From the IMG/VR virus record IMGVR_UViG_3300047157_000229, positions 38,796 to 102,795 of that record: DNA of 64,000 nt; one strand, given 5' to 3'. The notes beneath the pieces were generated by a model, which was given only the letters and a program-made list of their open reading frames with translations, made no database searches and had not been told where the DNA came from. Positions 3,721 to 61,618 of the stretch are shown piece by piece. The translations under genes were made by a program, and so were the position numbers. The DNA comes from a virus. Every line of letters begins with the position of its first letter. Position 1 is the first letter of the stretch.

Positions 3721-4572
3721 TTATTGGAAGCGATATCTATATTGTTCTATGTCGAAATCCACAAATCCGACATAAAGTTCATTTGCAAGAACATTTCTAG
3801 TCCTATCTGTTAGTTTTGAGGTCTTTACTTTCTCTATGCAGAACTTAGTTTCCCCTTTATAGGATTCAGCTAAACTCGTATAATTAAAGTCTCCTTCTTT
3901 TAAATCTCCAAATTCTGTGATTGGGTAACCTGACATTGGTATAGCTGCAATCACTTCATCTACAGAATCCATAAAGATAGACATAACTCCATCTAATTGG
4001 TATGTGTCCTCTGCGAGAATAACAGCTTTTGCTTGGACTTTTGTTTCTTGCATACCACCCAAAGCAAATGGGCATTTTCCGCTTGAGAAACAGACAGGAA
4101 AATAGCAGGAACTACATCATCATAAGGCTCAATATAAGTCAGAGGGCCAGATGGCAGTCTTGAATTAACAACATATTTGTTTTCTACTATTAAGTCATCT
4201 TCAGTATCATTAGTAAGATAAACATTAAAATCTTTTACCGCGAACTCTCCTGTGACTAGTCATGCTTGTATTATCTCCCGAAAACAAAGCTCTGCCATTT
4301 TCAAAATCAAAAACTACCCCGTCATCTCGACCTGATGTGCCAGCCCCTACCACTGAAACCCCTGTAGGTATAACAGCTCCAGCTATTGATGAATCTGTCA
4401 CCCATTGTTTATATGGGCTTCCATAAGCTACATATCTAGAATCTAATCTTGGATCAGCATAGTTAAATAGCTCTCCAGTCTTATTGCTATAAGCTTCACC
4501 TTTCTTTAGTAAGAAATTATCGAACCACAAAAAGAAAGATGAGGTTAGTTTATGTTGGAATTGTTCAATCAT
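3721..4572 (-). CDS. Putative tail completion/neck protein, broken by indels near 4065-4260
   Basis: ORFs 4225..4572 and 3721..4062 are linked by coding-like sequence in shifting frames. Confidence 0.55.
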
Positions 4573-5153
4573 TTCAAGTTTTCAAATCGTTTTCGGTATC
4601 TTTTTATCAAAGAAGATATATAAGGTCTGTTCTGAAATCTACCGCTTCTTACTCTTTTTACACGACTTTGTATCGCAGCCCCCGATCTTCCCTCACTTTT
4701 CCTTAATAAATATCCTAAACCTGACAAGCCTCTTTCTATACCTTCGGCCCAACTTCTTCCAGAAGCCCAAGGTAAAGGTGTGACCATGAATATATCTTCT
4801 GCTGTAGGCAAGGACACTTCAAATTCAACTCCTATACCCCTCTGTTTTATTTCTTGTTTATAAATTATTTGAGTTCCCTCTAACATGTTTAATATTGGAG
4901 ATATTGGTTGCTCTCCTGAATTAAAACCTATAAATGCAAATAAATTACTAATACCACCAAGAGTACCACTAATGTTTGATGCTCCAGCTCCTTCTAGCAG
5001 CTCTATAGTAACGGGGTCAGTCAAGAACTCTTTGATCATTTCATTTTTTAGATCTTTGAATTTCTTGTTTATCTCCTTTTCAAAGTCTCTTCTTAGAGCT
5101 TTTGGAGCTTGCCTTTTTAAAGCATTCTGGACATCTATAGGTAGTTTCGCCAT
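4569..5153 (-). CDS. Putative neck protein
   Basis: 194 aa, basic C-terminus; sits between the head-closure and tail-completion-like genes; 4-nt overlap. Confidence 0.5.
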   Translation of the reverse strand: MAKLPIDVQNALKRQAPKALRRDFEKEINKKFKDLKNEMIKEFLTDPVTIELLEGAGASNISGTLGGISNLFAFIGFNSGEQPISPILNMLEGTQIIYKQEIKQRGIGVEFEVSLPTAEDIFMVTPLPWASGRSWAEGIERGLSGLGYLLRKSEGRSGAAIQSRVKRVRSGRFQNRPYISSLIKRYRKRFENLK

Positions 5154-5621
5154 TTATTCAGTTGGGCTTAGAACGAAGGTGTAGAACTGATTAGAGGTGA
5201 AACCTCTAGGCTTACCATCGCTTTCTATTATAAACATTGTTCCATCAAACTCAACTCTACGAGCTTCGCTAAGATAGTTGTAACCATCTACTTTAACTAC
5301 TATTCTTACTGTGCCATCAGACACTACCACTTTGTTTTGAGTACCAGCTTGATCTGCTGGACCATCATCTGTCAAATACGATGTATCCATGTCATCATAA
5401 TAGATACGAGCTTGAAACGTTTGAGATTCGGTAGAATATTCTACTGAGCTATCAGAGCCAGTATTAGTTCTTCCATACAAAGAGTTCCAAGAGCTATTAG
5501 AAGCTATGAGGGTTTTCTTAGCATTCTTGTAAACTGTTATAGTCCTCGCAAATGTAGTATGTAAAGTATCAGCTAAGTTCTGAACTTTTGTTATTTGGTC
5601 GCTTGATAAAAAACCTGCCAT
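5154..5621 (-). CDS. Putative head-closure (stopper) protein
   Basis: 155 aa, beta-rich (FQARIYY, VRIVVK, RVEFDG...FYTFVL); position. Confidence 0.5.
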   Translation of the reverse strand: MAGFLSSDQITKVQNLADTLHTTFARTITVYKNAKKTLIASNSSWNSLYGRTNTGSDSSVEYSTESQTFQARIYYDDMDTSYLTDDGPADQAGTQNKVVVSDGTVRIVVKVDGYNYLSEARRVEFDGTMFIIESDGKPRGFTSNQFYTFVLSPTE

Positions 5622-5622
5622 G

Positions 5623-5650
5623 TTGATTTTTACACTATTATTTATATAAT
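5623..5650 (+). promoter_or_regulatory. sigma70-like promoter overlapping a divergent AGTGTAA motif
   Basis: TTGATT-16-TATAAT upstream of ATG 5666; TTACACT at 5630-5636 is AGTGTAA on the minus strand. Confidence 0.5.
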
Positions 5651-5665
5651 AAGATAGGTTTAAGG

Positions 5666-5953
5666 ATGAACGCTAAAAAAAATTTAGAAAAGTTGTCTAA
5701 TGATGAGATTTCTAGGCTTTTCAAAATGATGCTTATCATGGTCGAAGATATGAAGAAAGATCACGATTTTCATTATGAGAAGCTTTATAAAAATATCCCA
5801 AAGAAGTATCACCCAATTATAGATACCGCAGATCACTTTACCCCTGATAAGGCGGATTGGATTCGAAAAAGAATTTTAGATTGCGGCAATGAATCTATTA
5901 GAAATTTGTGTTCTAGAATTGATAATTATCAGGTAAGTTTTACATTTAAATAA
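5666..5953 (+). CDS. Hypothetical protein
   Basis: 95-aa helical ORF with an upstream promoter. Confidence 0.7.
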   Translation: MNAKKNLEKLSNDEISRLFKMMLIMVEDMKKDHDFHYEKLYKNIPKKYHPIIDTADHFTPDKADWIRKRILDCGNESIRNLCSRIDNYQVSFTFK

Positions 5954-5964
5954 GGAAAAAGGTT

Positions 5965-6720
5965 ATGGCATTTAAAGAATTGTATTCGTTCACTATCGAA
6001 GAAGAAAAAGAAGTAGAAAAAACTTCTAAAAGAAAAAACAAGAAAACTGGAGAGGAGACTACTGTCACTAAGAAAGTGAAGCAGAAAGTCCCGATCCAAA
6101 TCTCGATTAAACGTCCTTCTCGTAGAGAGCTAGAAGAGGCTGAGCTAGAATACTCTGTAGAAATGAGCCGTTGTGTCAAAAAAGGTATTTTGACTAAGGC
6201 TATGCTATATAAGAAATATAGTGATACTGGTGGTGTCTGGACTGAAGATGAGGCTAAAGATTATGGGGTTTTGTATAAAGAGACTTTTGAAATACAAAAT
6301 AAGTATGTCAGACTAGAGACTATCGAAAAAAAGACTGATGCTCAACTAAAAGAGTTGGACCAGTTGAAGACTGACCTCGCAGAGATTCGACGGAAACTTG
6401 TAGACGCTGAGACTTCTATGGAGAGCTTGTTCAACCATACCGCTGACAATAAAGCTCAAAATAGATTGCTTCTTTGGTACACCCTAATGCTCACAAACAT
6501 CAAAGCTGATGCTGATGGCGAATTCTCTCCTTACTTCAAAGGTGATGATTTTGATGAAAAAATTGAGGATTACTACAAGAAAGAGGACGAGGCTTCCGCA
6601 TTTTACTCAGACGTTGTAAAGAAAGTCACCACTGTCTTAGCTTTCTGGTTCTTTAACCAAGCATCTTCTCCTGACGAATTTAATAAACTTATTGAAGATG
6701 TCGAAAAAGGTGAGGTTTGA
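5965..6720 (+). CDS. Putative tail assembly chaperone
   Basis: 251 aa, charged/coiled-coil; two genes upstream of the TMP. Confidence 0.5.
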   Translation: MAFKELYSFTIEEEKEVEKTSKRKNKKTGEETTVTKKVKQKVPIQISIKRPSRRELEEAELEYSVEMSRCVKKGILTKAMLYKKYSDTGGVWTEDEAKDYGVLYKETFEIQNKYVRLETIEKKTDAQLKELDQLKTDLAEIRRKLVDAETSMESLFNHTADNKAQNRLLLWYTLMLTNIKADADGEFSPYFKGDDFDEKIEDYYKKEDEASAFYSDVVKKVTTVLAFWFFNQASSPDEFNKLIEDVEKGEV

Positions 6721-7691
6721 AGGATGAATTCTATATCTCTTTAATAGGGGAAGCTTTTGATGGCTACACAGAGGCATCTTTAGGTGATGATATTGTTTAC
6801 ATTAAACACGTAAATATTAGAGATCAAAGGTATCTACACAAGTATTTTGAAAAATATAAAGATTTAGCTCTCAAGAGGGGTCTTGAGACAGAGGCTGAGA
6901 GAATAAAATACGTCTTGAAAGAGAAGCTTTGGGAAGAAAAAGACGATATGAAAATCGCTTCTCTAGAAGGCGAGATCACAAATCTAAAAAAAACTGTAAA
7001 CCAACTATTGTTAGCCTCTCAAAGAGAAGAGTATAATAAGTTGATATTACAAAGAGCTGAAGAATTATACGAATTAAAGAAAAGCCGTTCTGAAGTCGTT
7101 GGTAAAACTGCGGAAGATTATGGAACTGGGAGAAGTTCAGATGAATTATTAAGATTCTTATTGTTTAAAGATAAAGACCTAAAAGAGAATCTCTATACAG
7201 AAGAAGAATTTGCGGAATTAGAAGGTTGGGAAATAAAACAATTAACTGACTTACATCTAGATATACAATCTAGATTAGCTGATGACAAGATACAGAAGGC
7301 TGTTCTGAGGCCATTCTTTAGTATGTATCTATCTCTTTGTGAAGATGCTTACGGATTCTACCAGAAACCTGTAACAGAATTAACTATATATCAACTACGA
7401 GTAGTATTGTTTGGCAGGATGTTCTTTAACATCTTCCAACACACAGAAGATATACCTGATAATATCCGAGATGATCCTGAAAAATTACTAGCATACTCCC
7501 AGAGTAAATCTAGCGGTAACACAGGTGGAATTAGAGATGACGCTGATAGCTCTGTTGTCTTCGGGGCTACTAATCAAGATGTCAAAGAACTTGGTGGAGA
7601 GAAAGCTGTTTCTCTTTCTGAGGAAGCTAAAAAACATGGTGGTCAACTAGATATGACACAAATGATGCGATTAGCTGGGCATGATGTGTAA
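6717..7691 (+). CDS. Putative tail assembly chaperone 2
   Basis: 324 aa, TTG start overlapping the previous stop; directly upstream of the TMP. Confidence 0.5.
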   Translation: MKDEFYISLIGEAFDGYTEASLGDDIVYIKHVNIRDQRYLHKYFEKYKDLALKRGLETEAERIKYVLKEKLWEEKDDMKIASLEGEITNLKKTVNQLLLASQREEYNKLILQRAEELYELKKSRSEVVGKTAEDYGTGRSSDELLRFLLFKDKDLKENLYTEEEFAELEGWEIKQLTDLHLDIQSRLADDKIQKAVLRPFFSMYLSLCEDAYGFYQKPVTELTIYQLRVVLFGRMFFNIFQHTEDIPDNIRDDPEKLLAYSQSKSSGNTGGIRDDADSSVVFGATNQDVKELGGEKAVSLSEEAKKHGGQLDMTQMMRLAGHDV

Positions 7692-7724: not shown

Positions 7725-10700
7725 ATGCCAGTAAGAATACCAGTAGTACAAACAGGATTAGAAGCCAGCATCGAGGCGGCAGCTAAAAAAGCAGGTAGAA
7801 ACCTCAAGATAAATATGGGCGGAAACGCCAAAAGTATCGAGGGGTTGTCTCAACCTTTAGGTCGAATTACTGGTAAGGCCGATCAGTTTACTAAATCTAT
7901 GGAAGCTGCTAATGCTCGCGTGTTAGCTTTCGGGGCTTCTGTTGGTATTCTATCTTCCGTCACTAGAGGTTTTCAAGATCTCATTAGGGTGACCATTGAT
8001 GTAGAAAAGTCTTTAACTAGTATTAATTCTATTTTAAATGTCACAGCCAAAGAACTAGATTCTTTTAAAAGCACTATCTTTAGTGTCGCTAAAAACACAG
8101 AGCAATCTTTTAGCGTAGTAGCTGAAGCTGCTTTGGAATTAAGTCGCCAAGGTTTAAAGGCTGAAGAGGTTACTAAGAGACTGAATGATGCTTTGATTCT
8201 AAGCCGTTTATCTGGTTTAGGGGCTTCTGAAGCTGTCGCAGGTTTAACAGCGGCTATAAACTCTTTTAATCAATCTGGAATTACAAGCGCTGAAGTTCTT
8301 AATAAGTTGTCAGCTGCTGCTGTTTCTGCTGCTGTTTCTGAAAGAGATCTTATTGAAGGTATTAAGCGTTCAGGATCGGTTGCTACTCAAGCTGGTGTCT
8401 CATTTGATGAATTAGTTGGTGTGATTACAGCTGTCCAAGCTAAAACTGCGCGAGGTGGAGCGGTTATCGGTAACTCCTTCAAAACGATATTCACCAGAAT
8501 ACAATCTATAGACAAGCTGCGAACTATGCAGAATTTGGGTGTAGAAGTAACAGACGCTTCTGGACAAGTTTTAGGAGCTACGAAATTAATTCAAAACTTA
8601 GCTAAATCTTTAGAAGCGGTTCCAGATGCGCGAAAATTGCAGATAGCTGAAGGTTTGGTAGGGAAATTCCAAGTTGCTCCATTCTTGGCTATACTTGACG
8701 ATTACAGTTCTAAGACCTCCAAAGCTATAGAGGTAACTAAGGTATCTCAAGGAGCTTTTTCAGAAGCTTATAATCGAAATGAAGCTCAGAACATAACTCT
8801 TTCTGCAGCTATCAATAAAACGACTGTGAGTGTTGCTCAATTAGCGGAAGCGTTAGGTAAGATTGGTGTCACTGACAACCTTAAATCTATGCTTGGTTTC
8901 TTTTCTACTGTTGTAGACGAGATACAAGAGATTTTGGACGGAGACGGTGTGGGGAGCAAATTTGCTAAAGGCATCGTCGCGGGTATAGGAAATATTATTA
9001 CTGGACCTGCATTCGCTGTATTCGCTGCTGTTATTGGTAAACTCGTAATTGATTTAGTTAGATTTGGGGCTGGATCTCTTAAGACATTTTTTGGTTTAAA
9101 TAAAGCTGCAAAAGAGCAAGCTACCCTACAAGGACAGATAGCCTCTACTCTTTTAGGTAATAAAACTATTCAAAAGAAGATCTTAGATATTGAAAATTCG
9201 CAGTTAAGCACTGCAGATAAAAGGAAAGCTCAAGTAAATTTTTTCACAACAGCTTTAAATGAGCAAGTGGGGATAATGACTAGGATGCAAGGTATTGCAG
9301 CTACAATAGCTCCTGGAGTTATGACTAATACCAGAAAGCTTAAAGGTCGCGGTGCTGGAGGATTTATTCCGAATTACAATGCTATTGTTGGTTATGGGTC
9401 AGAAAGCTCAGATATTAGTAAGGGTGTAGGAGGCGCTCCTTCTTCAGCGAGACCAGTAACTATACCCAACTTCAATTTTGGAGGTGGACAAAAAGGAACT
9501 ATGGTCGCTAACAGTAGCGAATACATAGTTCCTAATTATGCTGGAGGAGATGGGTCAGCTATCTTTAATCAAGATATGGCTGCTTCTATAGGTCTTCCTC
9601 CAAGAGCTAGGAAGATTGGTGCAGCTGGGGGTTATATACCTAACTTCGTTAATGAAGACAAAAGGCTAGTAATGTTCTCTGGAGACGAAACACCAGCTGG
9701 TAGAGGGGTAGATACAGAAAAAAAGTTTTATGTCGGCAAAACTAAAAAAAACGACACAGCGGCTTATGCAACACAATCAGCGGCTAAGGCGGCTAAGTTG
9801 AAGCCGACAAGTATTCAGCCTGTTACTGTTCCTGAATATAAGTTAGGACCAAAAGGCACGAACAAAAGCCCCTTATCTATAAAAACTATTAGGGACAAAT
9901 TATCTGCATCTTCTACATCTACAGCAATGGACTTTGCAAAAAGCTTAGCTCCAAAAAGTGGTATCCCTAATGTAAGCAGAGCCAAAATAAAAGAATTGTT
10001 TAACCCAGGAGCTTTCGAAGGCATGTCTGGAACTATTTTTGAAGTGGCTTTAAGTGGTGTTTTATCTGATGCTAAATTTGATGACTACGCGAGTAGAACT
10101 TCTACTTCTAGAATAGATTTACCTTATGATAAAAAACTTTTTGACTTGTTTGGCACTAAAGGTGCGGGGACACTGGGGGCAGAAGTTAAAGCTAATAGCA
10201 CATTAGCCAAAGCTGCTTCTATAAAGTTTTATGACGTATTATTTGGTGGAGGTGTTGCAGCTGATTATAAAAAAACAGTTCCAGTTTACGATAAAAATGG
10301 GAACCAAATAGGCACTAGAGATACCGCTTTAGGCGCTCAAGTTAGACAGAGCGAAATAGGAAATAGAATGGCTGGGATTGTAGGCTCAAACGGTAAACAA
10401 GTAGGATTTCAGGCGCTTCAAAAAATGTTGGGGGGTAGAGTGACTGTCGGGGGATTAAGAAATTTGAGAACGCAACAGGGTCTCCCTAATTTTGCTGGAG
10501 GATACCTTCCTAATTTTGCTGGTGGGTTACAAGATGCGATAGGAAGAGAAAAATCTGCTGGCTTACCGATCAATCAGATTCGCGTAAACCAAGATCCCAA
10601 ACTTAGAAACTCTGGTAACCCAATGGGGTTAGCTGTCACGAATACTAGAGACGAACCTACTGGGGCTATACCTAACTTTGCTAAGGGATCAAAGCCATCT

Positions 10701-13700
10701 ACTGGAAATGATGGAGATGGAATAAGTGGAGATTTCCTCACTAAGATATTTGCTGTGCAAATAGGTATGTCTGCTCTTAGTGGGGTGTTGGGAGAAGTGA
10801 CCGAAAAAAATAAAGCTGTAGCTAATAGTTTGACTGCTCTAAATGTAGTGATTAGCGCAGCTATGACCGCGCAAGCTTTTGGGGGTTTCAAAAGTGTAGG
10901 CGCAAATTTAGCGAGTACTTTTTCTCTGGGTAGAGGAAGGGGGGGAACGATTGCTGGGACAGGGTCTCTGGCTATGATGAGAGGGGGCAGAGGTGTTAGT
11001 CAAGGGATTGGTGATGCTGCGTCAAACTTAGGGGCTGCGTTTGGTCCAGGTGCAACTGGTCTTGGGGCTAGAGCTGGAATGGTTACAACAGCAGCAGCAG
11101 GTGCTGGGGGAGCATTAATGGGTGGATTAAAAGCAGCTGGCGGAGCGCTTTTAAGATTTGCTGGACCAATAGGAGTCGCTGCAACTGCTGGATTTGCAAT
11201 TAGTAAAGCAATGGATCTATTCAGCGGTAGGAATGAAATAGCTTCAATTCAAACTAAACAGCTTGGAGAAAACGCTAAACTGGCAAGTGAAAAATTAGCC
11301 TCTATAGAAATTCCGCAGGAATTAAAAGCGCGAATAGTTTCACGAAGTGAGAGCAGAGCGAATACAGCTTTGGAAGGTCTAGCTCCAGAAAGAGAAGGAT
11401 TTATTGAAAATCTAAAAAAAGAAATATTTAGTTTTGATAAAAAAGGTATTACAGATTTTACTGGAGTTGGATTAATTGCAGATGTTTTTGGGTCTATAGG
11501 TGGGAATATAGAAGGATCAGTAGACAGTAAATTGGAGGCAAACGTTAAGGAAGTTGTTAGACAAGCTGGAATATCTGGTTTAAATCCTCAGTTCATCGCT
11601 AAACAAGAGGAAATTATGGATGCCTCTAGACGCTCTAGAGGTGATGACGCACAGCTAAAAGGAGAAGAAATACAAAATTTCGTGAGTAGTCTTCTACAAC
11701 AGATGCAGAGCTTAAATCCACAAAAGATAATCAGCCAAGTATCTGAATCTCTAAGTTCTGAGGATCTTAGTTTGATAAGGGAGGCTGAGCAACTTAAAAA
11801 AGATGCTAAAAAATCTGGGCGCACTTTAGGGGGGGCTGATCTGTCTAAAACTCAAGAAGCTACAGCAATCATCGCAGAGGCTTTTAAGAATTTCCAAACA
11901 AAAAACCCCAATGCAAAAAATATCAATCCCGCGATTTTATTTCCAGGCGTAGCACAAAGAGCTTCTACAGGAGATACTAGAACAGGAGCAATTGAGAAGA
12001 TAAGAGGAGATCTAGGAAAGGAACAATTAAAAAGCGCTATAGATCTAGCAAAATTAAGAGCTGCAGAATTATCTGTAGAAGAAAAGTTACTAAATGGTGA
12101 TAAATTCAGAAAAAATTTAACTGCTGTAAGGAAAGCTGAATTACAAGAGGTGGTCGCTCTACAAAAAATAGACCTTAACACAAATAAACAAATTGCAGAC
12201 TCAATTAAAACAAGGATTGATTCTCTAGAATCTGTAGATTTTAATGAAGAAGAACAAGCCTCATTGAAACAAAAAATAAATGATCTTACTTTAGAACAAT
12301 TGACCGCAGAAGGTATGGTCGCAAGACTCATTGATGAAACTCTAGATTTAGATGGGAAGAAAAAAGATGAAAAACAGGAGTTAATAAAATTACTAAATGA
12401 GGAGATAAGTAGGACGAGAAAACTCGGCGAAGAGGAGCGAAAAAATGAAAAAGATAAGAGGAAACCCGAAAAAGAGGGCATTAATTTTTCGGATAGGCTA
12501 TCGAGAGCAACGAGTGTAGATATTAATAATATTGAAAGAGCTGCAATTCAAAGAAGTATCTCAGAAAGTGGAATCCAGAATCAGCTTAACATTAGGAAAG
12601 CTGCACTAAATCCTAATCTACTTCCTTTGGAAAAATTTAGACAAGAAGGTTTAATTGATAAAGCGTTTCGGGATGAAGAAGAAAAGAAGTCGGGTGCAGA
12701 TCTGTTAGATAAAACAAAAATAGCTGTAATAAATTTAAGAGACGAAATGCCAAGTCTAAAAAAGCAGTTTGACGAATTACTCGGTGTGATTGATAAAGAA
12801 GGACTAGAGAGTTTAGATAAGGTGGCAACCGCTATACAACTAATAGCTAATGGGGCGACGTTTAAAGTAGGAAAAGAGACAGATATTATTACGTTTGAGG
12901 ATACCAATACTGTTAAAAAAGGCGAAATTAAACCACAGCCGAAAAAAGCGATAATAGAGGCTCAGGAAGCACTTACTGAACTTGAAAGGGGTCGAGCTAA
13001 TAACAAAATACTCAAGGAAGGAAATCAGGCAATAGGGGATGCTAGAGCGGAGCAAGAAAAATATATAGAAGGATTCAGAACTTTTAGTCAGCTCCTTACT
13101 AGATTTACTTTCGATCTAAAACAGTCCACAGAAGACCTAAAGTTGGATCTCCTATTGGCTAAAGATGGTGCTAGTGCTATCTCTAATATCGACCAGAGAT
13201 TATTTAATGTTGATGCGAGAGCTGGTGGACCACAAGCTACAGCTAGAGCTTCAGATAGTCTAGCATTGAGGGGGGCTACCGATAAAATAACATTAGCTAG
13301 AACTAGTGTAGAACGACGAGCTGCGATAAAAAACAGAGATATCCTCGCTAAAGAATTAGAAATTAAAACAGAGGTAGCTGAGAAACAAAAAGATGGAGTA
13401 GAGGACACTAAAGAACTTGTTGCTCTTAGAGAGAGGCTTGTAGAATTAGAAAAACAAAGATTAGCGATTGGCACATCTAGAGCTGAATTGTTTGAAAATG
13501 AATTTGTCTTTACCCAAGAAGAAATACAAGAAGGTTTAGATAAAGCTTTAGTGCAAAATGCTAGAACATTTGTAGATACAATCAGAGATGGTTTAGTCGA
13601 TGCTATATCTAAAGGTCAAGACTTAGGTGATACTTTAAAACAAGCTGGAGCGAATTTCTTTAATCAACAAGCTAACGCTAATCTGGGTGCTGCATTTAAG

Positions 13701-14726
13701 AACATCTCATCTTCGGGATTTGTTCAAAATATTGCATCAGTGTTCTCTGGTAATCCCAATGCTAAAGGGGGGCCAGTTACAGGGGGGTCGGGATCTAAAG
13801 ACGATGTGCCAGCTTTGCTTATGGGTGGAGAATTTGTGATGAAAAAAAGTGCTGTTCAGAAATACGGTTCTGGATTCATGAACTCTTTGAACTCAGGTAA
13901 CATCCCCGCTATGGCTAGAGGGGGGTTGTTCACCCCAGGAACTTATGGTCAAGGAGAAATGAAGGGTACACGAAATCTATTAGATTTCGCGACACAATCA
14001 TTCACTACAGGAGCTTCTGATAAATTTAATTCTGGTTCAGGATTCGCCTCTATAGGTTTAGAGCCTCAGAGCGCGGCTCTAACGATGTTTGGACGTAGAA
14101 ACAGCCCAGCATTCCAAAGGGAGCAAGCGTCTAAGCGGAAGGCGTTTGGATTGTTTACTAGGGCGGTAGAACAAGAAAGAGCGGAAAAAGAAAGGGGGAG
14201 TGGATTCTCTGAAATCTTGAAGAAGTCCCTGTTATCCTTTGGAGCGAGTTTTGCATTCAAGGAACTCACGAATTTATTCGGTAATAAAAGCCCAACAGCT
14301 AATATAACACAAGACTTCTCAGACCCGACTCAGTATGATAATGGATATGCATTTTCAGCTACAGGAGGATCAATTCCTTATGCAGCTGGAGTAGATACAA
14401 TCCCTTCTATGTTGTCTGGTGGTGAGTTCGTCATGAATGCCGCTGCAACCCAGAGAATCGGCAGAGGTAATTTAAACGCTCTAAACTCAGGTGGTGGTGG
14501 TGGATCTGGTGACGTAGTAAGTAAACTAGATGAACTTATTTCTGTTTCTGATAATTCTGGAGAGACTGTGATCAATATCACCGTTAACTCTGATGGGTCA
14601 TCTAACTCTGAAGGTAGTGGAGACGATCAGCAAAATTCATTAGCGATGAAGATAAAAGATGTAGTTAAACAAGTGATTGATGACGAGAAAAGACTGGGAG
14701 GGTCACTAAGACAAGCTAGAGCATAA
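7725..14726 (+). CDS. Tail tape measure protein with inserted domains
   Basis: 2333 aa; N-terminal TP901-type TMP signature (ELSRQGL, ARGGAVIGNSFKTIFTRI); hydrophobic segments; coiled coil; two C-terminal GG..D.VP..L..GEFVM motifs. Confidence 0.92.
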   Translation: MPVRIPVVQTGLEASIEAAAKKAGRNLKINMGGNAKSIEGLSQPLGRITGKADQFTKSMEAANARVLAFGASVGILSSVTRGFQDLIRVTIDVEKSLTSINSILNVTAKELDSFKSTIFSVAKNTEQSFSVVAEAALELSRQGLKAEEVTKRLNDALILSRLSGLGASEAVAGLTAAINSFNQSGITSAEVLNKLSAAAVSAAVSERDLIEGIKRSGSVATQAGVSFDELVGVITAVQAKTARGGAVIGNSFKTIFTRIQSIDKLRTMQNLGVEVTDASGQVLGATKLIQNLAKSLEAVPDARKLQIAEGLVGKFQVAPFLAILDDYSSKTSKAIEVTKVSQGAFSEAYNRNEAQNITLSAAINKTTVSVAQLAEALGKIGVTDNLKSMLGFFSTVVDEIQEILDGDGVGSKFAKGIVAGIGNIITGPAFAVFAAVIGKLVIDLVRFGAGSLKTFFGLNKAAKEQATLQGQIASTLLGNKTIQKKILDIENSQLSTADKRKAQVNFFTTALNEQVGIMTRMQGIAATIAPGVMTNTRKLKGRGAGGFIPNYNAIVGYGSESSDISKGVGGAPSSARPVTIPNFNFGGGQKGTMVANSSEYIVPNYAGGDGSAIFNQDMAASIGLPPRARKIGAAGGYIPNFVNEDKRLVMFSGDETPAGRGVDTEKKFYVGKTKKNDTAAYATQSAAKAAKLKPTSIQPVTVPEYKLGPKGTNKSPLSIKTIRDKLSASSTSTAMDFAKSLAPKSGIPNVSRAKIKELFNPGAFEGMSGTIFEVALSGVLSDAKFDDYASRTSTSRIDLPYDKKLFDLFGTKGAGTLGAEVKANSTLAKAASIKFYDVLFGGGVAADYKKTVPVYDKNGNQIGTRDTALGAQVRQSEIGNRMAGIVGSNGKQVGFQALQKMLGGRVTVGGLRNLRTQQGLPNFAGGYLPNFAGGLQDAIGREKSAGLPINQIRVNQDPKLRNSGNPMGLAVTNTRDEPTGAIPNFAKGSKPSTGNDGDGISGDFLTKIFAVQIGMSALSGVLGEVTEKNKAVANSLTALNVVISAAMTAQAFGGFKSVGANLASTFSLGRGRGGTIAGTGSLAMMRGGRGVSQGIGDAASNLGAAFGPGATGLGARAGMVTTAAAGAGGALMGGLKAAGGALLRFAGPIGVAATAGFAISKAMDLFSGRNEIASIQTKQLGENAKLASEKLASIEIPQELKARIVSRSESRANTALEGLAPEREGFIENLKKEIFSFDKKGITDFTGVGLIADVFGSIGGNIEGSVDSKLEANVKEVVRQAGISGLNPQFIAKQEEIMDASRRSRGDDAQLKGEEIQNFVSSLLQQMQSLNPQKIISQVSESLSSEDLSLIREAEQLKKDAKKSGRTLGGADLSKTQEATAIIAEAFKNFQTKNPNAKNINPAILFPGVAQRASTGDTRTGAIEKIRGDLGKEQLKSAIDLAKLRAAELSVEEKLLNGDKFRKNLTAVRKAELQEVVALQKIDLNTNKQIADSIKTRIDSLESVDFNEEEQASLKQKINDLTLEQLTAEGMVARLIDETLDLDGKKKDEKQELIKLLNEEISRTRKLGEEERKNEKDKRKPEKEGINFSDRLSRATSVDINNIERAAIQRSISESGIQNQLNIRKAALNPNLLPLEKFRQEGLIDKAFRDEEEKKSGADLLDKTKIAVINLRDEMPSLKKQFDELLGVIDKEGLESLDKVATAIQLIANGATFKVGKETDIITFEDTNTVKKGEIKPQPKKAIIEAQEALTELERGRANNKILKEGNQAIGDARAEQEKYIEGFRTFSQLLTRFTFDLKQSTEDLKLDLLLAKDGASAISNIDQRLFNVDARAGGPQATARASDSLALRGATDKITLARTSVERRAAIKNRDILAKELEIKTEVAEKQKDGVEDTKELVALRERLVELEKQRLAIGTSRAELFENEFVFTQEEIQEGLDKALVQNARTFVDTIRDGLVDAISKGQDLGDTLKQAGANFFNQQANANLGAAFKNISSSGFVQNIASVFSGNPNAKGGPVTGGSGSKDDVPALLMGGEFVMKKSAVQKYGSGFMNSLNSGNIPAMARGGLFTPGTYGQGEMKGTRNLLDFATQSFTTGASDKFNSGSGFASIGLEPQSAALTMFGRRNSPAFQREQASKRKAFGLFTRAVEQERAEKERGSGFSEILKKSLLSFGASFAFKELTNLFGNKSPTANITQDFSDPTQYDNGYAFSATGGSIPYAAGVDTIPSMLSGGEFVMNAAATQRIGRGNLNALNSGGGGGSGDVVSKLDELISVSDNSGETVINITVNSDGSSNSEGSGDDQQNSLAMKIKDVVKQVIDDEKRLGGSLRQARA

Positions 14727-41971: not shown

Positions 41972-42596
41972 ATCATTATTAAGGTTTGATAAGAACCAAA
42001 AATATTTAGTTTTTGATACAGAGACTGAAGGTTTGAACTTAATCAGGTCAAGACCTTGGCAGGTTGCTTGGTTAGTGGTAGAGGGAGGTAAGATCTTGGA
42101 GAAGCACGATATGTTTCTGGATTGGCCGAACTTAGATGTCTCAGCGGGTGCAGCTAAGATCACAGGTTTTACTATGAAAGAGTATAATAAGAGAAAAGAA
42201 AGCCCTCGGAAGGTCTGGGAGAAGTTCTCTAAGAATCTTTACGATAAGGATACTTTTATCGTAGGTCAAAATTTATTAGGGTTCGACGTTTATATGGTTA
42301 ATATTTGGCGTGAGTTAATGAAATTAGAGGCTGATTACTCATATGTAGAACGCATTATTGATACTAGAGCTTTAGCTGTTGCTATAGCCAAAGATATTCC
42401 AGTAGATAAAGACGATTTTATCAGTTGGCAGTATAGACTTATAAATCATAGGGAAAGAAAGCTAAAAACATCTCAAGCTTTCTTGCTTAAAAAATACAAT
42501 ATAGATCATGACCCCAAACGATTGCATGATGCTCTTTACGACATTGAGATGAATTTTAAAGTTTTCCGTAAACAGCTCTTTGACTTAGAAATATGA
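41964..42596 (+). CDS. DEDDh 3'-5' exonuclease (DnaQ-like)
   Basis: FDTETEG, GQN..GFD, IDT, HDALYD. Confidence 0.9.
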   Translation: MDESLLRFDKNQKYLVFDTETEGLNLIRSRPWQVAWLVVEGGKILEKHDMFLDWPNLDVSAGAAKITGFTMKEYNKRKESPRKVWEKFSKNLYDKDTFIVGQNLLGFDVYMVNIWRELMKLEADYSYVERIIDTRALAVAIAKDIPVDKDDFISWQYRLINHRERKLKTSQAFLLKKYNIDHDPKRLHDALYDIEMNFKVFRKQLFDLEI

Positions 42597-45148
42597 ATGC
42601 ATTAAAATACACAGGATATAAAACGCCTTTCCCTGTAGGTGTTAAGTTGCCAGAGATTAAGATTGAGAATAAATACTACAAAGAAGTCTCATGTGAAGAA
42701 TCTGCAGACAATTACCAGTTTTTAAGGAAGTTGTGTTTCAAACGTCTACAACAAAAAGGTATTGACAAATTTGATAATGCTCAAGTTTACTATGATAGGT
42801 TAAAAGAAGAGCTGTCTATCTTCCAAGAGTTAGGGTTTGTAGACTATATACTACTAAACTGGGACATTATTAATTTTTGCGTAGAGAATGATATACCTAC
42901 AGGAGCTGGTCGAGGTAGCGCAGCTGGTTCTTTAGTTCTTTATGTTATCGGAGTGACGAATATAGATCCAATTGAGTATGATTTATTCTTTGAGAGATTT
43001 GTTTCGAAGAGTCGTGCAAAGAAGATAGAGCATGAAGGGGAGACTTTTCTCGATGGTAGTTTATTGGCTGATGTTGATAACGATATTTCTTATGATCGAA
43101 GATTAGAGGTTATAAAATATATTGAAAAAAAATATAAAGGCAAGACTTCTAAAATTTTGACGCTGAATACGTTAAGTGGTAAACTTTGCATGAAGGAATG
43201 TGGAAAGATAGTCGCGGAATTATCAGAGATGGAAGTGAATCACATTAGCGACTCGATTCCTAAGCACTATGGAATAGTGGCTAAATTACAAACGGCATAT
43301 GAAGAGAGCGAGACTTTCAAAAACCATGCGGATAAATATCCTAAAGTCTACAAGATAGCTAAAAAACTGCAAGGTCTGAACAAGAATACTGGAGTCCATC
43401 CTTCTGGGATATCTATTTCCTTTTATGAATTAGATGATATTATGCCACTACAGACGACAAATGATGACTCTTTGGTTTCGGCATATGACATGAATGATGT
43501 AGCCAGTTTAAGTGTCAAGTTCGATATCCTTGGTCTTCGAACATTGTCTGTCGTCCATGACGTTTGCAAGGGGCTAGGGATAAAGGCTTCTGATATAGAC
43601 CCTCATCACCCTAGTATATATGCGGCTTTATCTTGCTTAAGATCTCCGCAGGGGTTATTTCAGATTGAAGCAGATACAAACTTCAAAGTTTGCAAACTGA
43701 TCTCTCCTCAGAACCTCGAACAATTATCAGCGGTGGTCGCTATAGCAAGACCTGGAGCTTTAGATTTCAAGGATGCTTATGCTACTTATGTAAGAACTGG
43801 AGAATTCCAATCTGTTCATGAGTATTTTGATGACATCCTTAGTTATACTGGCGGGATACCTCTCTATCAGGAACAGTTGATGAAAATGGCTGTAAAAGTA
43901 GGTTTTAGTTTAGATGAATCGGAACAGCTAAGACGTATCGTCGGCAAGAAGAAGGTAGATAAAATGCCAGAGTGGAAGGCTAAAATTGATGATAAGATAA
44001 AAGAGAACGGGTTAGATCCTGAAGTGGGGGAAGTCCTGTGGAAAGTTGCAGAGGACTCCGCTAATTATTCTTTTAATAAATCTCACTCTATTAGTTATGC
44101 TTATTTAGCAGCGATTACTGTATACTTAAAATTCAACTACCCCCAAGAGTTTTACCTAAGTCTTCTGAAGTATACTAAGTTTGAGCCTAATTCTCATGAA
44201 GAGATAGCTAAGATATCTCAGGAGCTTTCTTATTTTGACATTGAGTTATTGCAGCCAGATTTAAATAAGTCGGATATCGATTTCAAAATTGAAGGTAAGA
44301 ATATTAGGTATGGTTTGAACTCGATAAAAGGTGTCTCGACTAAGGTCTTGGTATCTTTATTGGAATTTCGGGAAGATTCATTTTCTAATAAATATGAAGT
44401 CTTTTTGGCTGCTAAACAAGCAGGTTTGAACATCGGCACTTTATCAGCCCTTATACAAGCTGGATTGTTAGACTCATTTGTAAAACATACTAGACCAAGA
44501 TTGGTTTTGGAAGCCCAGACGTTCAATATTTTGACAGATAGAGAGAAGAGAAATCTACTTGAACTTGGTAAGTCATACGATTACGATATTATAACATCAA
44601 TACATGATGTAAAAACACAAGATATGGTTGGAGACGATAACAGGGTAATATTCAAGGACAAGAGGTTTGAGACATTCAAGAAAAAATATAAGCCCTACAA
44701 AGAAATTTATGAGATGAATAAAGTGCATAATAAGTACGCTAATTGGTATTTTGAAGAGAAACTATTAGGGTATAGTTATTCTTATAACATTAGAGAGATA
44801 TTTACTTATGGACAGGATTTTCATTCTGCTGACGCAGTGAAAGATCTTGAACCTAGAGCTAGGGTGAAATTCGTCGGCTCTTTAACTGATATTATAAAAC
44901 GTACTAGTCGGAACGGAAATAAATATGCTAGATTGACTATGCAGGATGAGACTGGTGTTTTAGAAGGGTTATTTCTAGATAGTGAGAGAGAGGGTCGATT
45001 AACTGATTATTTAGATTCTGGAAAAAAATTGCCTAATAAGGGTGATGTTGTTATAGTATTTGGGTCTAAAGGAGATGATATTGTGTTTCTCGACAAAATA
45101 GTCCCTTTGAAGGATAAAATCTATATGAAACTATCTGAACTAAAATAG
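42593..45148 (+). CDS. dnaE: DNA polymerase III alpha, catalytic part lacking PHP
   Basis: GRGSAAGSLV, FERF, ADVDND, HPSG, KFDILGL, YQEQLM, YSFNKSH, C-terminal OB fold. Confidence 0.95.
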   Translation: MNALKYTGYKTPFPVGVKLPEIKIENKYYKEVSCEESADNYQFLRKLCFKRLQQKGIDKFDNAQVYYDRLKEELSIFQELGFVDYILLNWDIINFCVENDIPTGAGRGSAAGSLVLYVIGVTNIDPIEYDLFFERFVSKSRAKKIEHEGETFLDGSLLADVDNDISYDRRLEVIKYIEKKYKGKTSKILTLNTLSGKLCMKECGKIVAELSEMEVNHISDSIPKHYGIVAKLQTAYEESETFKNHADKYPKVYKIAKKLQGLNKNTGVHPSGISISFYELDDIMPLQTTNDDSLVSAYDMNDVASLSVKFDILGLRTLSVVHDVCKGLGIKASDIDPHHPSIYAALSCLRSPQGLFQIEADTNFKVCKLISPQNLEQLSAVVAIARPGALDFKDAYATYVRTGEFQSVHEYFDDILSYTGGIPLYQEQLMKMAVKVGFSLDESEQLRRIVGKKKVDKMPEWKAKIDDKIKENGLDPEVGEVLWKVAEDSANYSFNKSHSISYAYLAAITVYLKFNYPQEFYLSLLKYTKFEPNSHEEIAKISQELSYFDIELLQPDLNKSDIDFKIEGKNIRYGLNSIKGVSTKVLVSLLEFREDSFSNKYEVFLAAKQAGLNIGTLSALIQAGLLDSFVKHTRPRLVLEAQTFNILTDREKRNLLELGKSYDYDIITSIHDVKTQDMVGDDNRVIFKDKRFETFKKKYKPYKEIYEMNKVHNKYANWYFEEKLLGYSYSYNIREIFTYGQDFHSADAVKDLEPRARVKFVGSLTDIIKRTSRNGNKYARLTMQDETGVLEGLFLDSEREGRLTDYLDSGKKLPNKGDVVIVFGSKGDDIVFLDKIVPLKDKIYMKLSELK

Positions 45149-45159
45149 TGTAAAGAATT

Positions 45160-47586
45160 ATGATGGGTTTAGCCGATTTCAACCTTACACCTAAAGCGAA
45201 GAAAGGATTAAAAGATTCTAAGAAGTTTGCTAGGGATAATGGTCACGATTTAGTAACAGTAGCTCACTTGGTATATGGCTGTTTATCGAATATATCTGAT
45301 ACCTGTTCGCTTAGATTAAAATCTTATGATATAGATTTAGATGTTGAGGTGTTTAAAGGTATTTTCGAAAAATACTCAAAAGAAAACGAGTATTACTTTT
45401 TAAGTAAGAAGGGGCAAGGAGGATGGCATAGTGATGTGAATGAGACGATAAAGTCTGCGAAAGATTTTTCGGACATGTTCGATAGTTATTTTATTGGTAT
45501 AGAGCATATACTTTATGTAATTCTGGATTCTGATAATGATTTTATAAAATTTCTATCTAAAAACAGTATCGATCTTCTGTTGTCAAAAGATTTGATTGAG
45601 GGTTATGTCTTAGAAGATAGCATTCCCGCTTTGGATAGGATGAGGGATTCATTTGTCTCTGAGACTGAAGAGCTTGTTAATGTCGAAGATCTCCAATCTC
45701 CATTACCTAATATCTCAAAATACTGCATAAACTTGAATGAAAAGTATATTGCGAATAAAAACGCTGTTATTTCTGGAAGGGACAATGAAATTCACCAGCT
45801 TGTAGAAATCCTTTCTAAGAAAAACAAAAGCAATGCAATCTTAGTCGGAGATGCAGGTGTCGGTAAAACAGCTATAGCAGAAGGTTTAGCCCAAAAAATC
45901 GTAGGGCAAGAAGTGCCGCCGCACATGTCTCTCATGCAGATTTGCTCAGTTGATATAAGTGCTATGGTCGCTGGGACCAAGTATAGAGGGGAGTTTGAAG
46001 AGAAATTCAAAGCTTTGATCTCAGAAGCGGAAAAAGAACCTAATATCATACTCTTTTTTGATGAGATTCATACTATAATAGGTGCTGGTAATTCAGAAGG
46101 CGCTGTAGATGCTTCAAATATGCTTAAACCAGCCCTTGCTAGAGGAGAGATAAAATGCATAGGGGCGACAACAACCCAAGAATACAAGAAGTTCTTTGAG
46201 AAAGATACTGCGATTAAAAGGAGATTCGAAAAAATAGAGGTCGAGGAACCTACTAAAGCAGAAACAAAAGAGATTATATTAAAAACAATTTGTTATTATG
46301 AAGATTTTCACAATGTTCGATATTTAGAATCTGATATTGATACAGTCATAGATTTTTGTGAAAAATATTTGAGTAACAAGAAGTTTCCTGATAAAGCATT
46401 CGATGTCATTGACCAATTGGGGGCTAGGACTAGGATCAAATACAACAAGACCCCATCTAAGGTGGATGACGTTAGAGATTCTTTTTGTAAGGTTCTAATG
46501 GATAGTGATAATGATGAGGAATTAGATGAGGAGCAGTTTACTTTGTTATTGAAAGACTACCTTCAAGTAATGTCTCGTTATCAAGAGAATCGGGGTAGGA
46601 AGCAAAATATTAGACAAAAAGACATCTTAGCTATTTTCCAAGAGAAGACTGGATTATCAGCGAAAACTCTTAATAAGAACCATTCTTCTTTTGTCTCTTT
46701 CTCTAAACAAATGAATAGCGAAGTTTTTGGGCAGCATAAGAATATAAATCTTATTTATAATGCTTTATCTTGTGCTAAAGCAGGTTTAAATGATCCTAGT
46801 AAACCATTAAGTAATTTTCTTTTTGTCGGAGATACAAGTGTGGGCAAGACATATACTGCTAAAAAAATAGCAAAGTATTTCTTTGGTAATGAGAAATCAT
46901 TTTTACAACTTAATATGAGCGAATACCAAGATAAAACAGCTATCTCTAAACTTATGGGTGCAAATGCTGGCTATGTAGGTTATGACGAAGGTGGGCTGCT
47001 CACAGAGTTTGTTCGTAATAATCCCAACTGCGTTGTATTGTTTGATGAAGTCGAGAAATGTGAGCCTAAAGTTTTAGATATTTTACTCCACATTCTAGAT
47101 GAGGGTTATGCTACAGATAACCTTAATAGGAATATCGATTTCAGTAAGACTATAGTCATTATGACTTCTAATATTGGTCATAAAGAAAAATCATCTAAGA
47201 GTATGGGATTTGCTCCTGATAAACAACAAGAGATAGATGTTTATAATTCTTGTGTTAAAAAATATTTTAGACCAGAGTTATTAGCTCGCGTCGATGAGGT
47301 ATTGATTTTTAATGAGTTGGGAGAACGTGAATTGAGGCAGATCATAAGAAAAGAGCTGTTTGAAATAAAATCTAGACTATTAGACAGGGATATAAATGTA
47401 GTCTTGCAGAAAAAAGTAGAGACTTATATCTTTAATAAGATTAAAAATGATAAAAATCACGCTAGACAAATAAAAAGTGTTGTAAAATCTCTAGTTCAAG
47501 TCCCGATATCTAACTTCATCGTAAATAACAGAGATGTTGAGAAAATATCGATAAATATAGTTGACAAATCGCTACAATTTGCATAA
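45160..47586 (+). CDS. ClpA/ClpC-type Hsp100 AAA+ ATPase
   Basis: Clp-N repeats, GDAGVGKT, FFDEIHT, GDTSVGKT, LFDEVEK, SMGF loop, RPELLAR. Confidence 0.92.
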   Translation: MMGLADFNLTPKAKKGLKDSKKFARDNGHDLVTVAHLVYGCLSNISDTCSLRLKSYDIDLDVEVFKGIFEKYSKENEYYFLSKKGQGGWHSDVNETIKSAKDFSDMFDSYFIGIEHILYVILDSDNDFIKFLSKNSIDLLLSKDLIEGYVLEDSIPALDRMRDSFVSETEELVNVEDLQSPLPNISKYCINLNEKYIANKNAVISGRDNEIHQLVEILSKKNKSNAILVGDAGVGKTAIAEGLAQKIVGQEVPPHMSLMQICSVDISAMVAGTKYRGEFEEKFKALISEAEKEPNIILFFDEIHTIIGAGNSEGAVDASNMLKPALARGEIKCIGATTTQEYKKFFEKDTAIKRRFEKIEVEEPTKAETKEIILKTICYYEDFHNVRYLESDIDTVIDFCEKYLSNKKFPDKAFDVIDQLGARTRIKYNKTPSKVDDVRDSFCKVLMDSDNDEELDEEQFTLLLKDYLQVMSRYQENRGRKQNIRQKDILAIFQEKTGLSAKTLNKNHSSFVSFSKQMNSEVFGQHKNINLIYNALSCAKAGLNDPSKPLSNFLFVGDTSVGKTYTAKKIAKYFFGNEKSFLQLNMSEYQDKTAISKLMGANAGYVGYDEGGLLTEFVRNNPNCVVLFDEVEKCEPKVLDILLHILDEGYATDNLNRNIDFSKTIVIMTSNIGHKEKSSKSMGFAPDKQQEIDVYNSCVKKYFRPELLARVDEVLIFNELGERELRQIIRKELFEIKSRLLDRDINVVLQKKVETYIFNKIKNDKNHARQIKSVVKSLVQVPISNFIVNNRDVEKISINIVDKSLQFA

Positions 47587-56187: not shown

Positions 56188-56218
56188 ACCCCCACCTAAA
56201 GAGGTGGGGGTTTTTTTT
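56188..56218 (+). terminator. Rho-independent terminator between convergent genes
   Basis: ACCCCCACCT-AAAG-AGGTGGGGGT followed by a T-run. Confidence 0.88.
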
Positions 56219-59200: not shown

Positions 59201-61618
59201 CAGTCCCGTTAGCTTCTAAAACCCCCACCACTCTAACTGCATCCACATAAGTAGTGCCTGTTGAGTAAGCTCCTAACCCTAATATAACTCCTGCTGCTCC
59301 TACTGAATCAACCGCCAAACCTCTGTTTAATTGTAAAGGATAAGCCCCTGTGTCTGTGAATCTTGAAGTTCCAGAGCTTCCAGCTGTTATAGCTCCAGAA
59401 CTTATTGTACCTGCAAAAGTTGATGACGTACCTGTTTTTGTTTCGTTTAATACGCCACCTGCATAAAAATATTGACCTACATTCGCTGCCCCATAATAAA
59501 CTATATGTTCATAAGAATCTAGTGCTATGTACGCTTTTTGTGAACCTGCATCATTAAATTGTATTTTACCACCTCCTGTACCATCTTTCTCAATAGTTAA
59601 TGTTGAGGATGTGCCATTATCAATGGTTACATTACCTGCAAAAGTTGCATCGCCATCACTATTTACTGTGATTAAATCGCTACTAGTGTTGAAATTATAA
59701 AGTCTGAAATTATTACTGCCACTAGGCACATACCAGCCATAAGAACCAGAACTATTTGTCGCTTTAAGTGCTGTTGGACCTGTTGTGCCTTCAACTTCAA
59801 TTCTTGCTGTTCCCGCATTATATACATGTAATTTCTCCAGAGGATGCGTTGTTCCTATACCAACGTTACCTGCTAGAGCGGTGCTGCCTTTAATAAATAC
59901 GCCACTTGTTCCCCCAGCATACCCTAAGTTTAAATCGGTAGTGCCAAAGACAAGGGTTGTATTCACATAACCCCCGAAAATTGCATTACTTGCAAAAGTT
60001 GCATCGCCATTGCTATTTTTAATTTCTAAAGCACGATTGCTTGTTCCGCTATACGTTATGTAAAGCTGAGTTCCATCATTATCTATTCTATTGGTAATAT
60101 TTGTCCCCGAAGCTGTTACATAAAAATTCTGGGCATAAGAATTAGGGGTAGAGGTATAACCTGCAAAGGTTACGTTACCGTCTCTGTTGATACGCATTTT
60201 TTCGGTATTACCAACTCCAGCTTTATATGTTTTAAATAATAAGTCTCTACCAACAACACTATCAGCATTGTTGTATTCTATTTGTATACTAGCATCACCG
60301 TTATTAAATGTTAAGAAAGCGCTATCCCCATTATTAATATTAGTATTTCCCTTTACAGTGAATGCGTTATGCAGAGTACTGCCACCAGTGTTTATACCAA
60401 CTTTACCATCACTCTTGATTGTAATACGATCCGCACTAGCGTCTTCATCTTTAATTCTTAAATCACTCGATGAATTTGTATATATAGAATAGGTTCTGGC
60501 ATCAGTTCTATCTATAGTGAGTTTTACATCACTGCCACTATCTGCGATATGGAGTAGAGAGGATGGATTAGTTGTTCCTATACCAACGTTACCGTCGTTT
60601 CTGATACGCATTGACTCTACAAGATCGGTAGAACCAAATTGAGAATGTTGCGTAAAGAAAGCTAATCCAATTTCGTTAGGGTCGGTGTCAGTCTGAATAG
60701 CTACGATTGAAGCGGCTTGAAGCTGTGCTTCGTTAGTAGAGCCAAAAGTAATAGATCCAGCATAAGCTCCTACTGCGGAACTCATAGTTTGATTACCTAT
60801 ATGAAGATCAGAATTAGCGTCTAAATAACCAAGTGAATAAGATTTACTGCCTTTTATATGCAATTTAGCAATAGGACTAGTTGTTCCTATACCAACGTTG
60901 CCGTCAGCCTTTATTGTCATTCTTTGGAATAGCCCACTATTTTCCGTCCAAAATGAAAGTTGACTAGTAGCTCCATTACCTTCCCTTATACCTCTTATTC
61001 TAGCGACATACCTATCGGCAGTATCATTAGAACTTGTTCTGAAATCTATGTTATAGCCACCACCATTAGTTATATTATTAGCGTCAAACTCCAGTAGGGT
61101 TTTAGGCGTTGATGTAAGTGCATCTAGCTATCGTCTAAATTATAAGCTGGAGAAACTGTTCCTATACCAACGTTGCCGCCATTTAATATAGTAAGAGCCT
61201 CTGAATCTCCTCCATCTATAAAACGTAATCTATCTGTAGTTCCCCCGTAAGCAATAGTAAATGCATTACTATTATTTGCGAGCATTATTGCTGATCTAGA
61301 AGTATCATCATTTCCATTAGATGAATTTCTTTTTACTTGCAATAGTATATTGGAGCTACTATAAGGAGATGCACCATCAGTAACAACAAGTCTGTGAGGT
61401 GGATTAGTAGTTGTTCCTATACCAACGGCGTTATTTATGTTAATGTTACCAGAAGAGTTGATGGTCAAACGAGGCGAGCTTTGTGTTTTAAGCGTCAGGC
61501 TGTCATAACCTGCTAACACTACCGCACCGTTTGAGTCACCCGATAGGGAATTTGTATCCATATTAAGATACAGATTCGCGTTGACCTTAAGATCATTATT
61601 TATGTTTCTTGTTGGCAT
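56217..61618 (-). CDS. Large modular tail fibre protein 1 (~1800 aa; frame break near 61125)
   Basis: ORF 56217..60920 is open upstream to ~61125 and joins ORF 61124..61618; many GNVGIGTTxP repeats. Confidence 0.8.

Follow-up and report, generated by a model that had tools for sequence, protein, structure and literature searches.

An exchangeable cassette with PD-(D/E)xK-like residues in the tape measure protein of uncultured marine siphophages

Tape measure proteins (TMPs) are expelled from the phage tail tube at infection, as has been established for lambda gpH and T5 pb2. The TMP considered here is encoded in a stretch of viral DNA of 64,000 nucleotides (positions 38,796 to 102,795 of IMG/VR record IMGVR_UViG_3300047157_000229), which was analysed whole and is referred to as the window. 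Between two conserved modules, this protein carries a globular segment that is exchanged between related phages, and that resembles, in a small set of residues, the active sites of nucleases. The closest described systems are TMPs in which peptidoglycan hydrolase motifs are embedded, as set out in the available text of PMC1796659 and PMC10194240. Mycobacteriophage TM4, the TMP transglycosylases of enterococcal phages and T5 pb2, so far as those sources describe them, are like the present case in that an enzymatic module, presumed to be active upon ejection, lies inside the TMP. The cassette differs from them in that its residues are nuclease-type rather than of the muramidase or peptidase type, with no hydrolase family matched, and in that it is sharply bounded and swapped between close relatives.

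A second group of comparable systems consists of the polymorphic toxins (Tox-REase) and the polyvalent proteins of phages, the latter being nuclease-fold effectors that are predicted to be delivered with the phage DNA (Iyer et al., as cited in the available text of PMC7824862). As far as these sources go, toxins, polyvalent proteins and the TMP cassette have in common a conserved delivery scaffold with a hypervariable effector, placed at its end or inside it, that keeps its catalytic residues. The carrier here is, in contrast, the TMP itself, and no Tox-REase family of Pfam is matched.

The residues in question point to the PD-(D/E)xK superfamily, which is notorious for evading sequence searches. 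Apart from a few active-site residues, its families have next to no sequence in common, according to the available text of PMC1913061. The cassette is like members of this superfamily (UPF0102/YraN, Hjc, Mrr_cat, Tox-REase-7 and the phage family PDDEXK_14) in the order and spacing of its signature, in the alternation of E and D, and in a compatible secondary structure. It is unlike them in that no significant sequence, profile or fold match links it to any member, and in that it is enclosed on both sides by a structural protein of the virion. The reading favoured here, for which the arguments on the two sides are about evenly balanced, is that the segment is an exchangeable enzyme cassette in the TMP of a sizeable group of uncultured marine siphophages, namely a PD-(D/E)xK-like phosphodiesterase.

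A fixed slot between IPNF motifs

The segment is a discrete cassette in a fixed slot between IPNF motifs, and it is replaced wholesale between otherwise similar phages. An initial annotation, made from the DNA letters alone, had described an insert of ~280 amino acids (aa) in the TMP that is not coiled-coil, and this was borne out: aa 644-923 are globular and lie between IPNF motifs. The motif scan recovered the borders that had been named, GGYIPNF and LPNFAGGYLPNF. The span given for the segment, window 9640-10485, is real but one base out of frame, the in-frame equivalent being window 9639-10484 (aa 639-920). The parts of the gene that matter for the comparison are as follows, in window coordinates.

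7725-14726, + strand: TMP gene, 2333 aa, a single open reading frame (ORF) of 7002 bases with PF10145 and PHROG tape-measure matches
8088-8663, + strand: PF10145 PhageMin_Tail domain (aa 122-313; E 1.8e-26 in the Pfam scan)
8970-9080, + strand: hydrophobic, membrane-like segment upstream of the cassette (aa 416-452; Kyte-Doolittle 19-residue window, maximum 2.12)
9342-9653, + strand: Gly-rich module before the cassette, conserved and with four [ILV]PN[FY] motifs (aa 548, 580, 602, 638), from the motif scan and the identity comparison
9654-10493, + strand: exchangeable cassette (aa 644-923), the segment of the initial annotation, placed by the identity drop, the nucleotide break and AlphaFold
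10494-10694, + strand: post-cassette module (aa 924-990), the second IPNF module, very highly conserved by an exact 14-mer and nucleotide similarity
10734-11204, + strand: Gly/Ala-rich hydrophobic region downstream of the cassette (aa 1004-1160), from composition along the protein

Assignment of the gene as a TMP of the TP901/PF10145 type is supported by the PF10145 match, the very long ORF, the tail gene module, and the presence of hydrophobic and coiled regions. The first ~500 residues match several PHROG tape-measure families, and a gene for a lambda gpM-like minor tail protein (PF05939) lies two genes downstream. The charged helical part of the protein extends over aa ~1200-2000, and the cassette lies away from either end, at ~30% of the TMP length. 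A C-terminal motif, GGEFVM(K/N)..A....G.G....LN.G, is present in two copies (window 13824-13904 and 14418-14498; aa 2034-2060 and 2232-2258), which have Gly-rich surroundings and are kept in the consensus of the TMP family.

Relatives were collected through the pattern AxGYIPNF in IMG/VR, where at least 320 contigs encode them, and 80 of these contigs were kept as loci. Identity to the window was compared over the 99 aa before the insert, the insert itself, and the 64 aa after it. The flanks are mostly 65-98% identical to the window in the other loci, whereas most inserts are only 20-35% identical; whether the slot varies or is swapped among related phages was a check that the initial annotation had suggested. 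Two loci make this plain: in L063, flanks of 93% and 89% identity enclose an insert of 24%, and in L026, flanks of 93% and 81% enclose one of 28%. The pre-cassette module has 28-100% protein identity to the window in the loci measured, and at least 63% in all but three.

The borders are equally sharp at the level of nucleotides. Similarity (72-88%) to L063, L026, L021 and L019 ends at aa 643-646, at GGYIPNF, and is found again from aa 924-936 on, where the next IPNF lies; inside the cassette there is no nucleotide similarity to any of the four. In L026, L021 and L019 the similarity before the cassette extends from the start of the gene. In L007, which has a cassette of the same subfamily as the window, nucleotide similarity is unbroken, at 87%. 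Nucleotide similarity is likewise missing from the charged helical middle of the TMP (aa ~1055-1800) in comparisons with relatives whose N- and C-terminal parts are 75-87% identical, and the cassette is thus not the sole fast-changing stretch of the gene.

The post-cassette module has the consensus GYIPNFA..PL.DAI.RE.AAGLP.NQIRINQ...LRN..NPMGLAVTNTRDEPTGAIPNF and is conserved to a much higher degree than the cassette that precedes it: 57 of 79 loci contain the 14-mer NPMGLAVTNTRDEP without a change. The module is also found in proteins of metagenome-assembled genomes (MAGs) that are without the cassette core. The window TMP has seven [ILVF]PN[FY] motifs (aa 548, 580, 602, 638, 920, 928 and 982), including those of the Gly-rich IPNF region before the insert (aa 540-645), and their junctions span window 9366-10679. 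Distant MAG proteins from Cellvibrionales and Halobacteriovorax, encoded by ORFs as long as 4788 aa, contain as many as ten IPNF motifs and lack the core. Two Halobacteriovorax ORFs, of 4202 and 4788 aa (L086 and L087), contain ten IPNF-type motifs, with other modules between them. Given the nucleotide breaks at IPNF, and the other modules between IPNFs in the distant MAG proteins, these motifs behave as module junctions; they may be recombination joints, sites of cleavage or strands that dock to the tube. An insertion by an intein or homing endonuclease was considered and rejected, as there is no Hint or intein match in Pfam, the IPNF junctions are not intein-like, and the slot is filled in 82/82 loci.

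A catalytic-looking core kept in every variant

Within the exchanged segment, one part is kept. In every cassette variant a helix bears G-x-x-F-E, D comes next and is preceded by a hydrophobic residue, a strand then supplies (D/E)-x-K, and the helix after it a further K. In the window, the corresponding elements of the core are, in order, a helix with G769-x-x-F-E773, a short hairpin with D798, a strand with E820-V-K822, and a helix with K834. The counts listed here are taken from alignment A5, which consists of 51 non-redundant cores that are pairwise less than 80% identical and have a mean column identity of 27%.

9660-9947, + strand: N-terminal half of the cassette (aa 646-741), rich in beta structure and different among subfamilies (AlphaFold strands and subfamily comparison)
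9948-10331, + strand: conserved catalytic-looking core (aa 742-869), from the core profile, alignment A5, column counts and the model
G769 column: G in 50 of 51
F772 column: F in 41, Y in 9, L in 1 of 51
10041-10043, + strand: E773 codon; E in 50, D in 1 of 51
10116-10118, + strand: D798 codon; D in 51/51
10182-10190, + strand: E820-V821-K822 codons, the (D/E)xK motif; position 820 is E in 34 and D in 17, and K822 is K in 51/51
10224-10226, + strand: K834 codon, in the helix after the ExK strand; K in 48, Q in 3 of 51

The initial annotation had picked E773 (in GTIFE), D798 (in SRID), and E820 and K822 (in AEVK) from a single sequence; all are exactly at their numbered positions and are kept among homologues. 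A lone E...D...ExK pattern is weak, but that four picks from one sequence fall among the six best-conserved of 128 core positions is far beyond chance. An alignment of 37 domains and alignment A1 gave the same picture, with E773, D798 and K822 invariant and E820 at least 90% conserved. The first hidden Markov model (HMM) of the domain recognised 62/82 loci. The remaining 20/82 have unrelated-looking sequence in the same slot and keep the same motifs, examples being the sets GAAFEV...GGDFDV...GDFKV; GTVFEA...RWDL...ADFKN; GATFEA...ELDVV...ADFKN; and GGIFEA...PFDFEE...ADAKR. With a cross-subfamily core HMM, the core was found in 82/82 related loci and in the window. The N-terminal half of the cassette (aa 646-741) is replaced by unrelated sequence in other subfamilies. 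Judged from these alignments, the combination of five fixed polar residues, replacement of the rest of the cassette, and E/D exchange at a putative metal-ligand position is an active-site pattern.

Structure prediction gives this core a plausible setting. AlphaFold2, used with the 58-row alignment A2, produced a 466-residue model of aa 535-1000, in which the model number is the TMP residue minus 534. The model is mixed alpha/beta, globular and free of coiled coil, with a mean predicted local distance difference test (pLDDT) score of 74.7, which rises to 80-96 across the insert and is 85-95 over the modelled E-D-ExK region; prediction of the segment from its single sequence gave a pLDDT of 35.6. 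The N-terminal half of the cassette contributes strands 114-118, 130-138, 144-147 and 164-172. It is followed by a long helical hairpin (185-244), the second helix of which (227-244) carries E773, and by a short helix (248-255). D798 lies between two beta bridges of one residue each, at 257 and 265, and then come a helix (269-274), the strand 284-288 (GAEVK), a helix (291-305) carrying K834, and a hairpin (317-332). As modelled, elements in this order can be reconciled with the alpha-beta-beta-beta-alpha-beta core of PD-(D/E)xK enzymes.

Fold searches with the model gave no restriction-endonuclease match. The best E was 0.47 with Foldseek against PDB and 0.33 against BFVD, the query in both cases being the 466-residue model, and single domains can be missed in models of more than 400 residues. 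VIA-align wide and a VIA re-look returned no restriction-endonuclease fold among the matches listed, which were filled by the helical hairpin. The check by AlphaFold and Foldseek that had been proposed for this segment therefore yielded a confident alpha/beta globular model, but none of the restriction-endonuclease matches that it was meant to find was listed.

Evidence for and against a nuclease

Among known superfamilies, PD-(D/E)xK alone fits the cassette residues in their order, their spacing and the secondary structure around them: in the window TMP, the signature runs in the order E (on a helix), D, and (D/E)xK (on a strand). A language-model neighbour search with the core alone is consistent with this assignment. 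All of its named neighbours are PD-(D/E)xK families (Mrr_cat 0.83, PDDEXK_14 0.82, Tox-REase-7 0.81, Hjc 0.80, AHJR-like 0.79 and ThaI 0.79), with scores all below 0.9 that make this a lead only. For profile comparison by hhalign, alignments of Mrr_cat, UPF0102/YraN and AHJR-like families were built from genome loci; a sampling of PDDEXK_14 gave matches in 0 of 301 bacterial genomes. Against UPF0102/YraN, the core scored 16.2 (P = 0.037), with E, D and ExK in register. In calibration, true family pairs scored 15.8-28.8 and unrelated TMP parts against the same families 8-16.6, ranges that overlap. The score with the AHJR-like family was weak, at 10.5.

Several observations weigh against the interpretation of the cassette as a PD-(D/E)xK phosphodiesterase. 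The UPF0102/YraN score is equalled by that of a negative control (16.6), and the alignment with Mrr_cat, with a score of 13.7, is out of register. Both the in-register YraN alignment and the language-model matches may owe their outcome to one and the same handful of motif residues. An hmmscan of Pfam with the segment, the 51 cores and 10 whole cassettes of other subfamilies found no nuclease family, and PHROG, PADLOC (with the 51 cores) and PDB sequence searches gave no match for the cassette. Profiles A3 and A5 searched against PDB sequences gave only noise, in the form of hemopexin-type lectins. In the model, the first two strands are rudimentary, being mere single-residue bridges around D798, and the three-stranded meander is not clear; compared with known members of the superfamily, a helix is also inserted between D and ExK. 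A nuclease beside the channel would also endanger the DNA of the phage itself. Finally, polymorphic toxins would lead one to expect a possible inhibitor gene that varies with the cassette, but within 4 kb upstream of the TMP no immunity-like gene does so: five upstream genes follow the identity of the TMP N-terminus (28-100%) and none falls with the cassette. Along with the zero Tox-REase matches among the 51 cores and 10 whole cassettes, this speaks against membership in the Tox-REase group, which the initial annotation had named among the PD-(D/E)xK nucleases. Its idea of a nuclease cargo is partly supported overall, by the conserved residues and the cassette organization but not by confirmation of a restriction-endonuclease fold.

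A doubtful but serious alternative is that the cassette is an envelope-acting enzyme or ligand-binding domain of a new fold, directed at a glycan, peptide or phosphodiester link in wall, capsule or membrane, and that its likeness to nucleases is due to convergence. The enzymatic domains so far described inside TMPs are all cell-wall hydrolases, at least in the available text of PMC1796659 and PMC10194240. The confident cassette model matches no known fold, nuclease or other, and the turnover of the cassette fits the diversification with host surface chemistry that is expected of envelope-facing modules. These points are countered by the residues themselves, as an invariant Lys two positions after an acidic residue on a strand, together with E/D alternation, is a hallmark of PD-(D/E)xK enzymes and not of glycosidases. 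They are countered further by the language-model neighbours, which are all nuclease families, and by the searches for an embedded peptidoglycan hydrolase, which gave no lysozyme-like, transglycosylase or peptidase match in Pfam or PHROG, no esterase family of Pfam and no fold match.

It is improbable, though in keeping with the catalytic-type residues of all variants, which make action on nucleic acid plausible, that the cassette is a nuclease-derived holder of the DNA end that grips or processes the leading genome end in the tail and pilots it through the TMP channel, with host DNA not attacked. The TMP lies in the tube beside the DNA end and exits first (established for lambda gpH and T5 pb2), and such a role would avoid the problem of self-damage. 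A holder of this kind would be expected to co-evolve slowly with the genome ends; instead, the cassette is swapped between phages with neighbour genes that are 80-95% identical, and its position well inside the TMP is not that of an end. Least probable is a non-catalytic structural spacer or plug, serving tail geometry or chaperone docking and using its charged residues as salt bridges or a metal site, for although no search assigned a catalytic family and TMPs tolerate many insertions, five polar residues are invariant or nearly so while the rest is ~20% identical, with an E/D exchange typical of active sites, and the slot is never empty in 82 related loci.

Occurrence, neighbouring genes and delivery

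When 1.84 billion cluster representatives were searched exhaustively with HMMER, 36 homologues came up; almost all are TMPs of 1400-3200 aa, and in these the homologous domain occupies the same place (aa ~650-870). A search of 90% clusters added 26 further TMPs, of which one is named as originating from a Flavobacteriaceae MAG and one is from TARA. Six marine MAG contigs have the post-cassette module, under titles that include Flavobacteriaceae, Verrucomicrobiales, Cellvibrionales, Halobacteriovorax and Puniceicoccaceae. Free-standing copies of the domain were sought and no convincing one was found, the single short match (195 aa on a 2-kb contig) being probably a fragment; a few short homologues run on into the post-cassette module and are thus fragments of TMP genes. 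Among the cultured phages of INPHARED, tblastn found no match to the segment and blastn none to the whole TMP gene. With matches in IMG/VR, MAGs and clusters and none in cultured phages, the group is common, marine and uncultured. The G+C content of the window (~37-40%) fits a Bacteroidota host, which is only a guess.

The genes upstream of the TMP have a conserved order, five of them (window 3721-7691) keeping it in more than 40 IMG/VR loci. The upstream ORFs that were scanned have no match in Pfam or PHROG, including two ORFs at the usual position of the tail assembly chaperones.

3721-4062, 4225-4572, 4569-5153 and 5154-5621, - strand: ORFs upstream of the TMP, conserved gene order
5666-5953, 5965-6720 and 6717-7691, + strand: ORFs upstream of the TMP, conserved gene order

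Elsewhere, at 42593-47586, the window encodes a DnaE-type DNA polymerase III alpha subunit (PF07733, PF17657 and PF14579), the gene for which is directly adjoined by that of a ClpB/Hsp104-like double AAA+ protein (PF07724, PF00004 and ClpB_D2-small). An ORF of 1567 aa (56217-60920, - strand) has no Pfam match at E <= 0.001.

If the cassette is a PD-(D/E)xK-like phosphodiesterase, its conserved residues would form a metal-dependent site of that type on a minimal or divergent alpha-beta-beta-beta-alpha core. Hydrophobic segments lie either side of the slot (aa 416-452 and aa 1004-1160). Because the TMP is expelled from the tail and the slot is flanked in this way, the cassette would reach the envelope or cytoplasm before the genome, as a pre-made enzyme. 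Once delivered, it may cut nucleic acid (DNA of the host, of plasmids or of rival phages, for instance) or handle the leading end of the DNA. The wholesale exchange of the cassette suggests conflict with a host factor, and its rapid turnover outside the active site could stem from an arms race in which the host contributes inhibitors or sensors. A more tentative extension of this reading is that the TMP is a delivery vehicle for interchangeable nuclease effectors, which are exchanged by recombination at IPNF junctions, much as polymorphic toxins are, and fired ahead of the genome.

The literature searched contained peptidoglycan hydrolases in TMPs and polyvalent nucleases that are predicted to be injected, and no nuclease-like domain inside a TMP; nor was a conserved, catalytic-looking TMP cassette of a type other than the wall-degrading one, swapped between close relatives, described in it. 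If the assignment is true, a nuclease would for the first time be seen as the cargo of a TMP, and the PD-(D/E)xK fold would have a new variant that current structure and profile libraries miss. The group, being common in marine viromes yet without a cultured member, is an open target for synthesis-and-assay work. The sharp borders of the cassette at IPNF suggest that very long TMP-like proteins follow a modular grammar of general validity. Should the cassette be a nuclease, TMPs would provide a second route, besides proteins packed in the capsid, by which ready-made enzymes are delivered before gene expression, with a bearing on host takeover, defence evasion and competitor exclusion.

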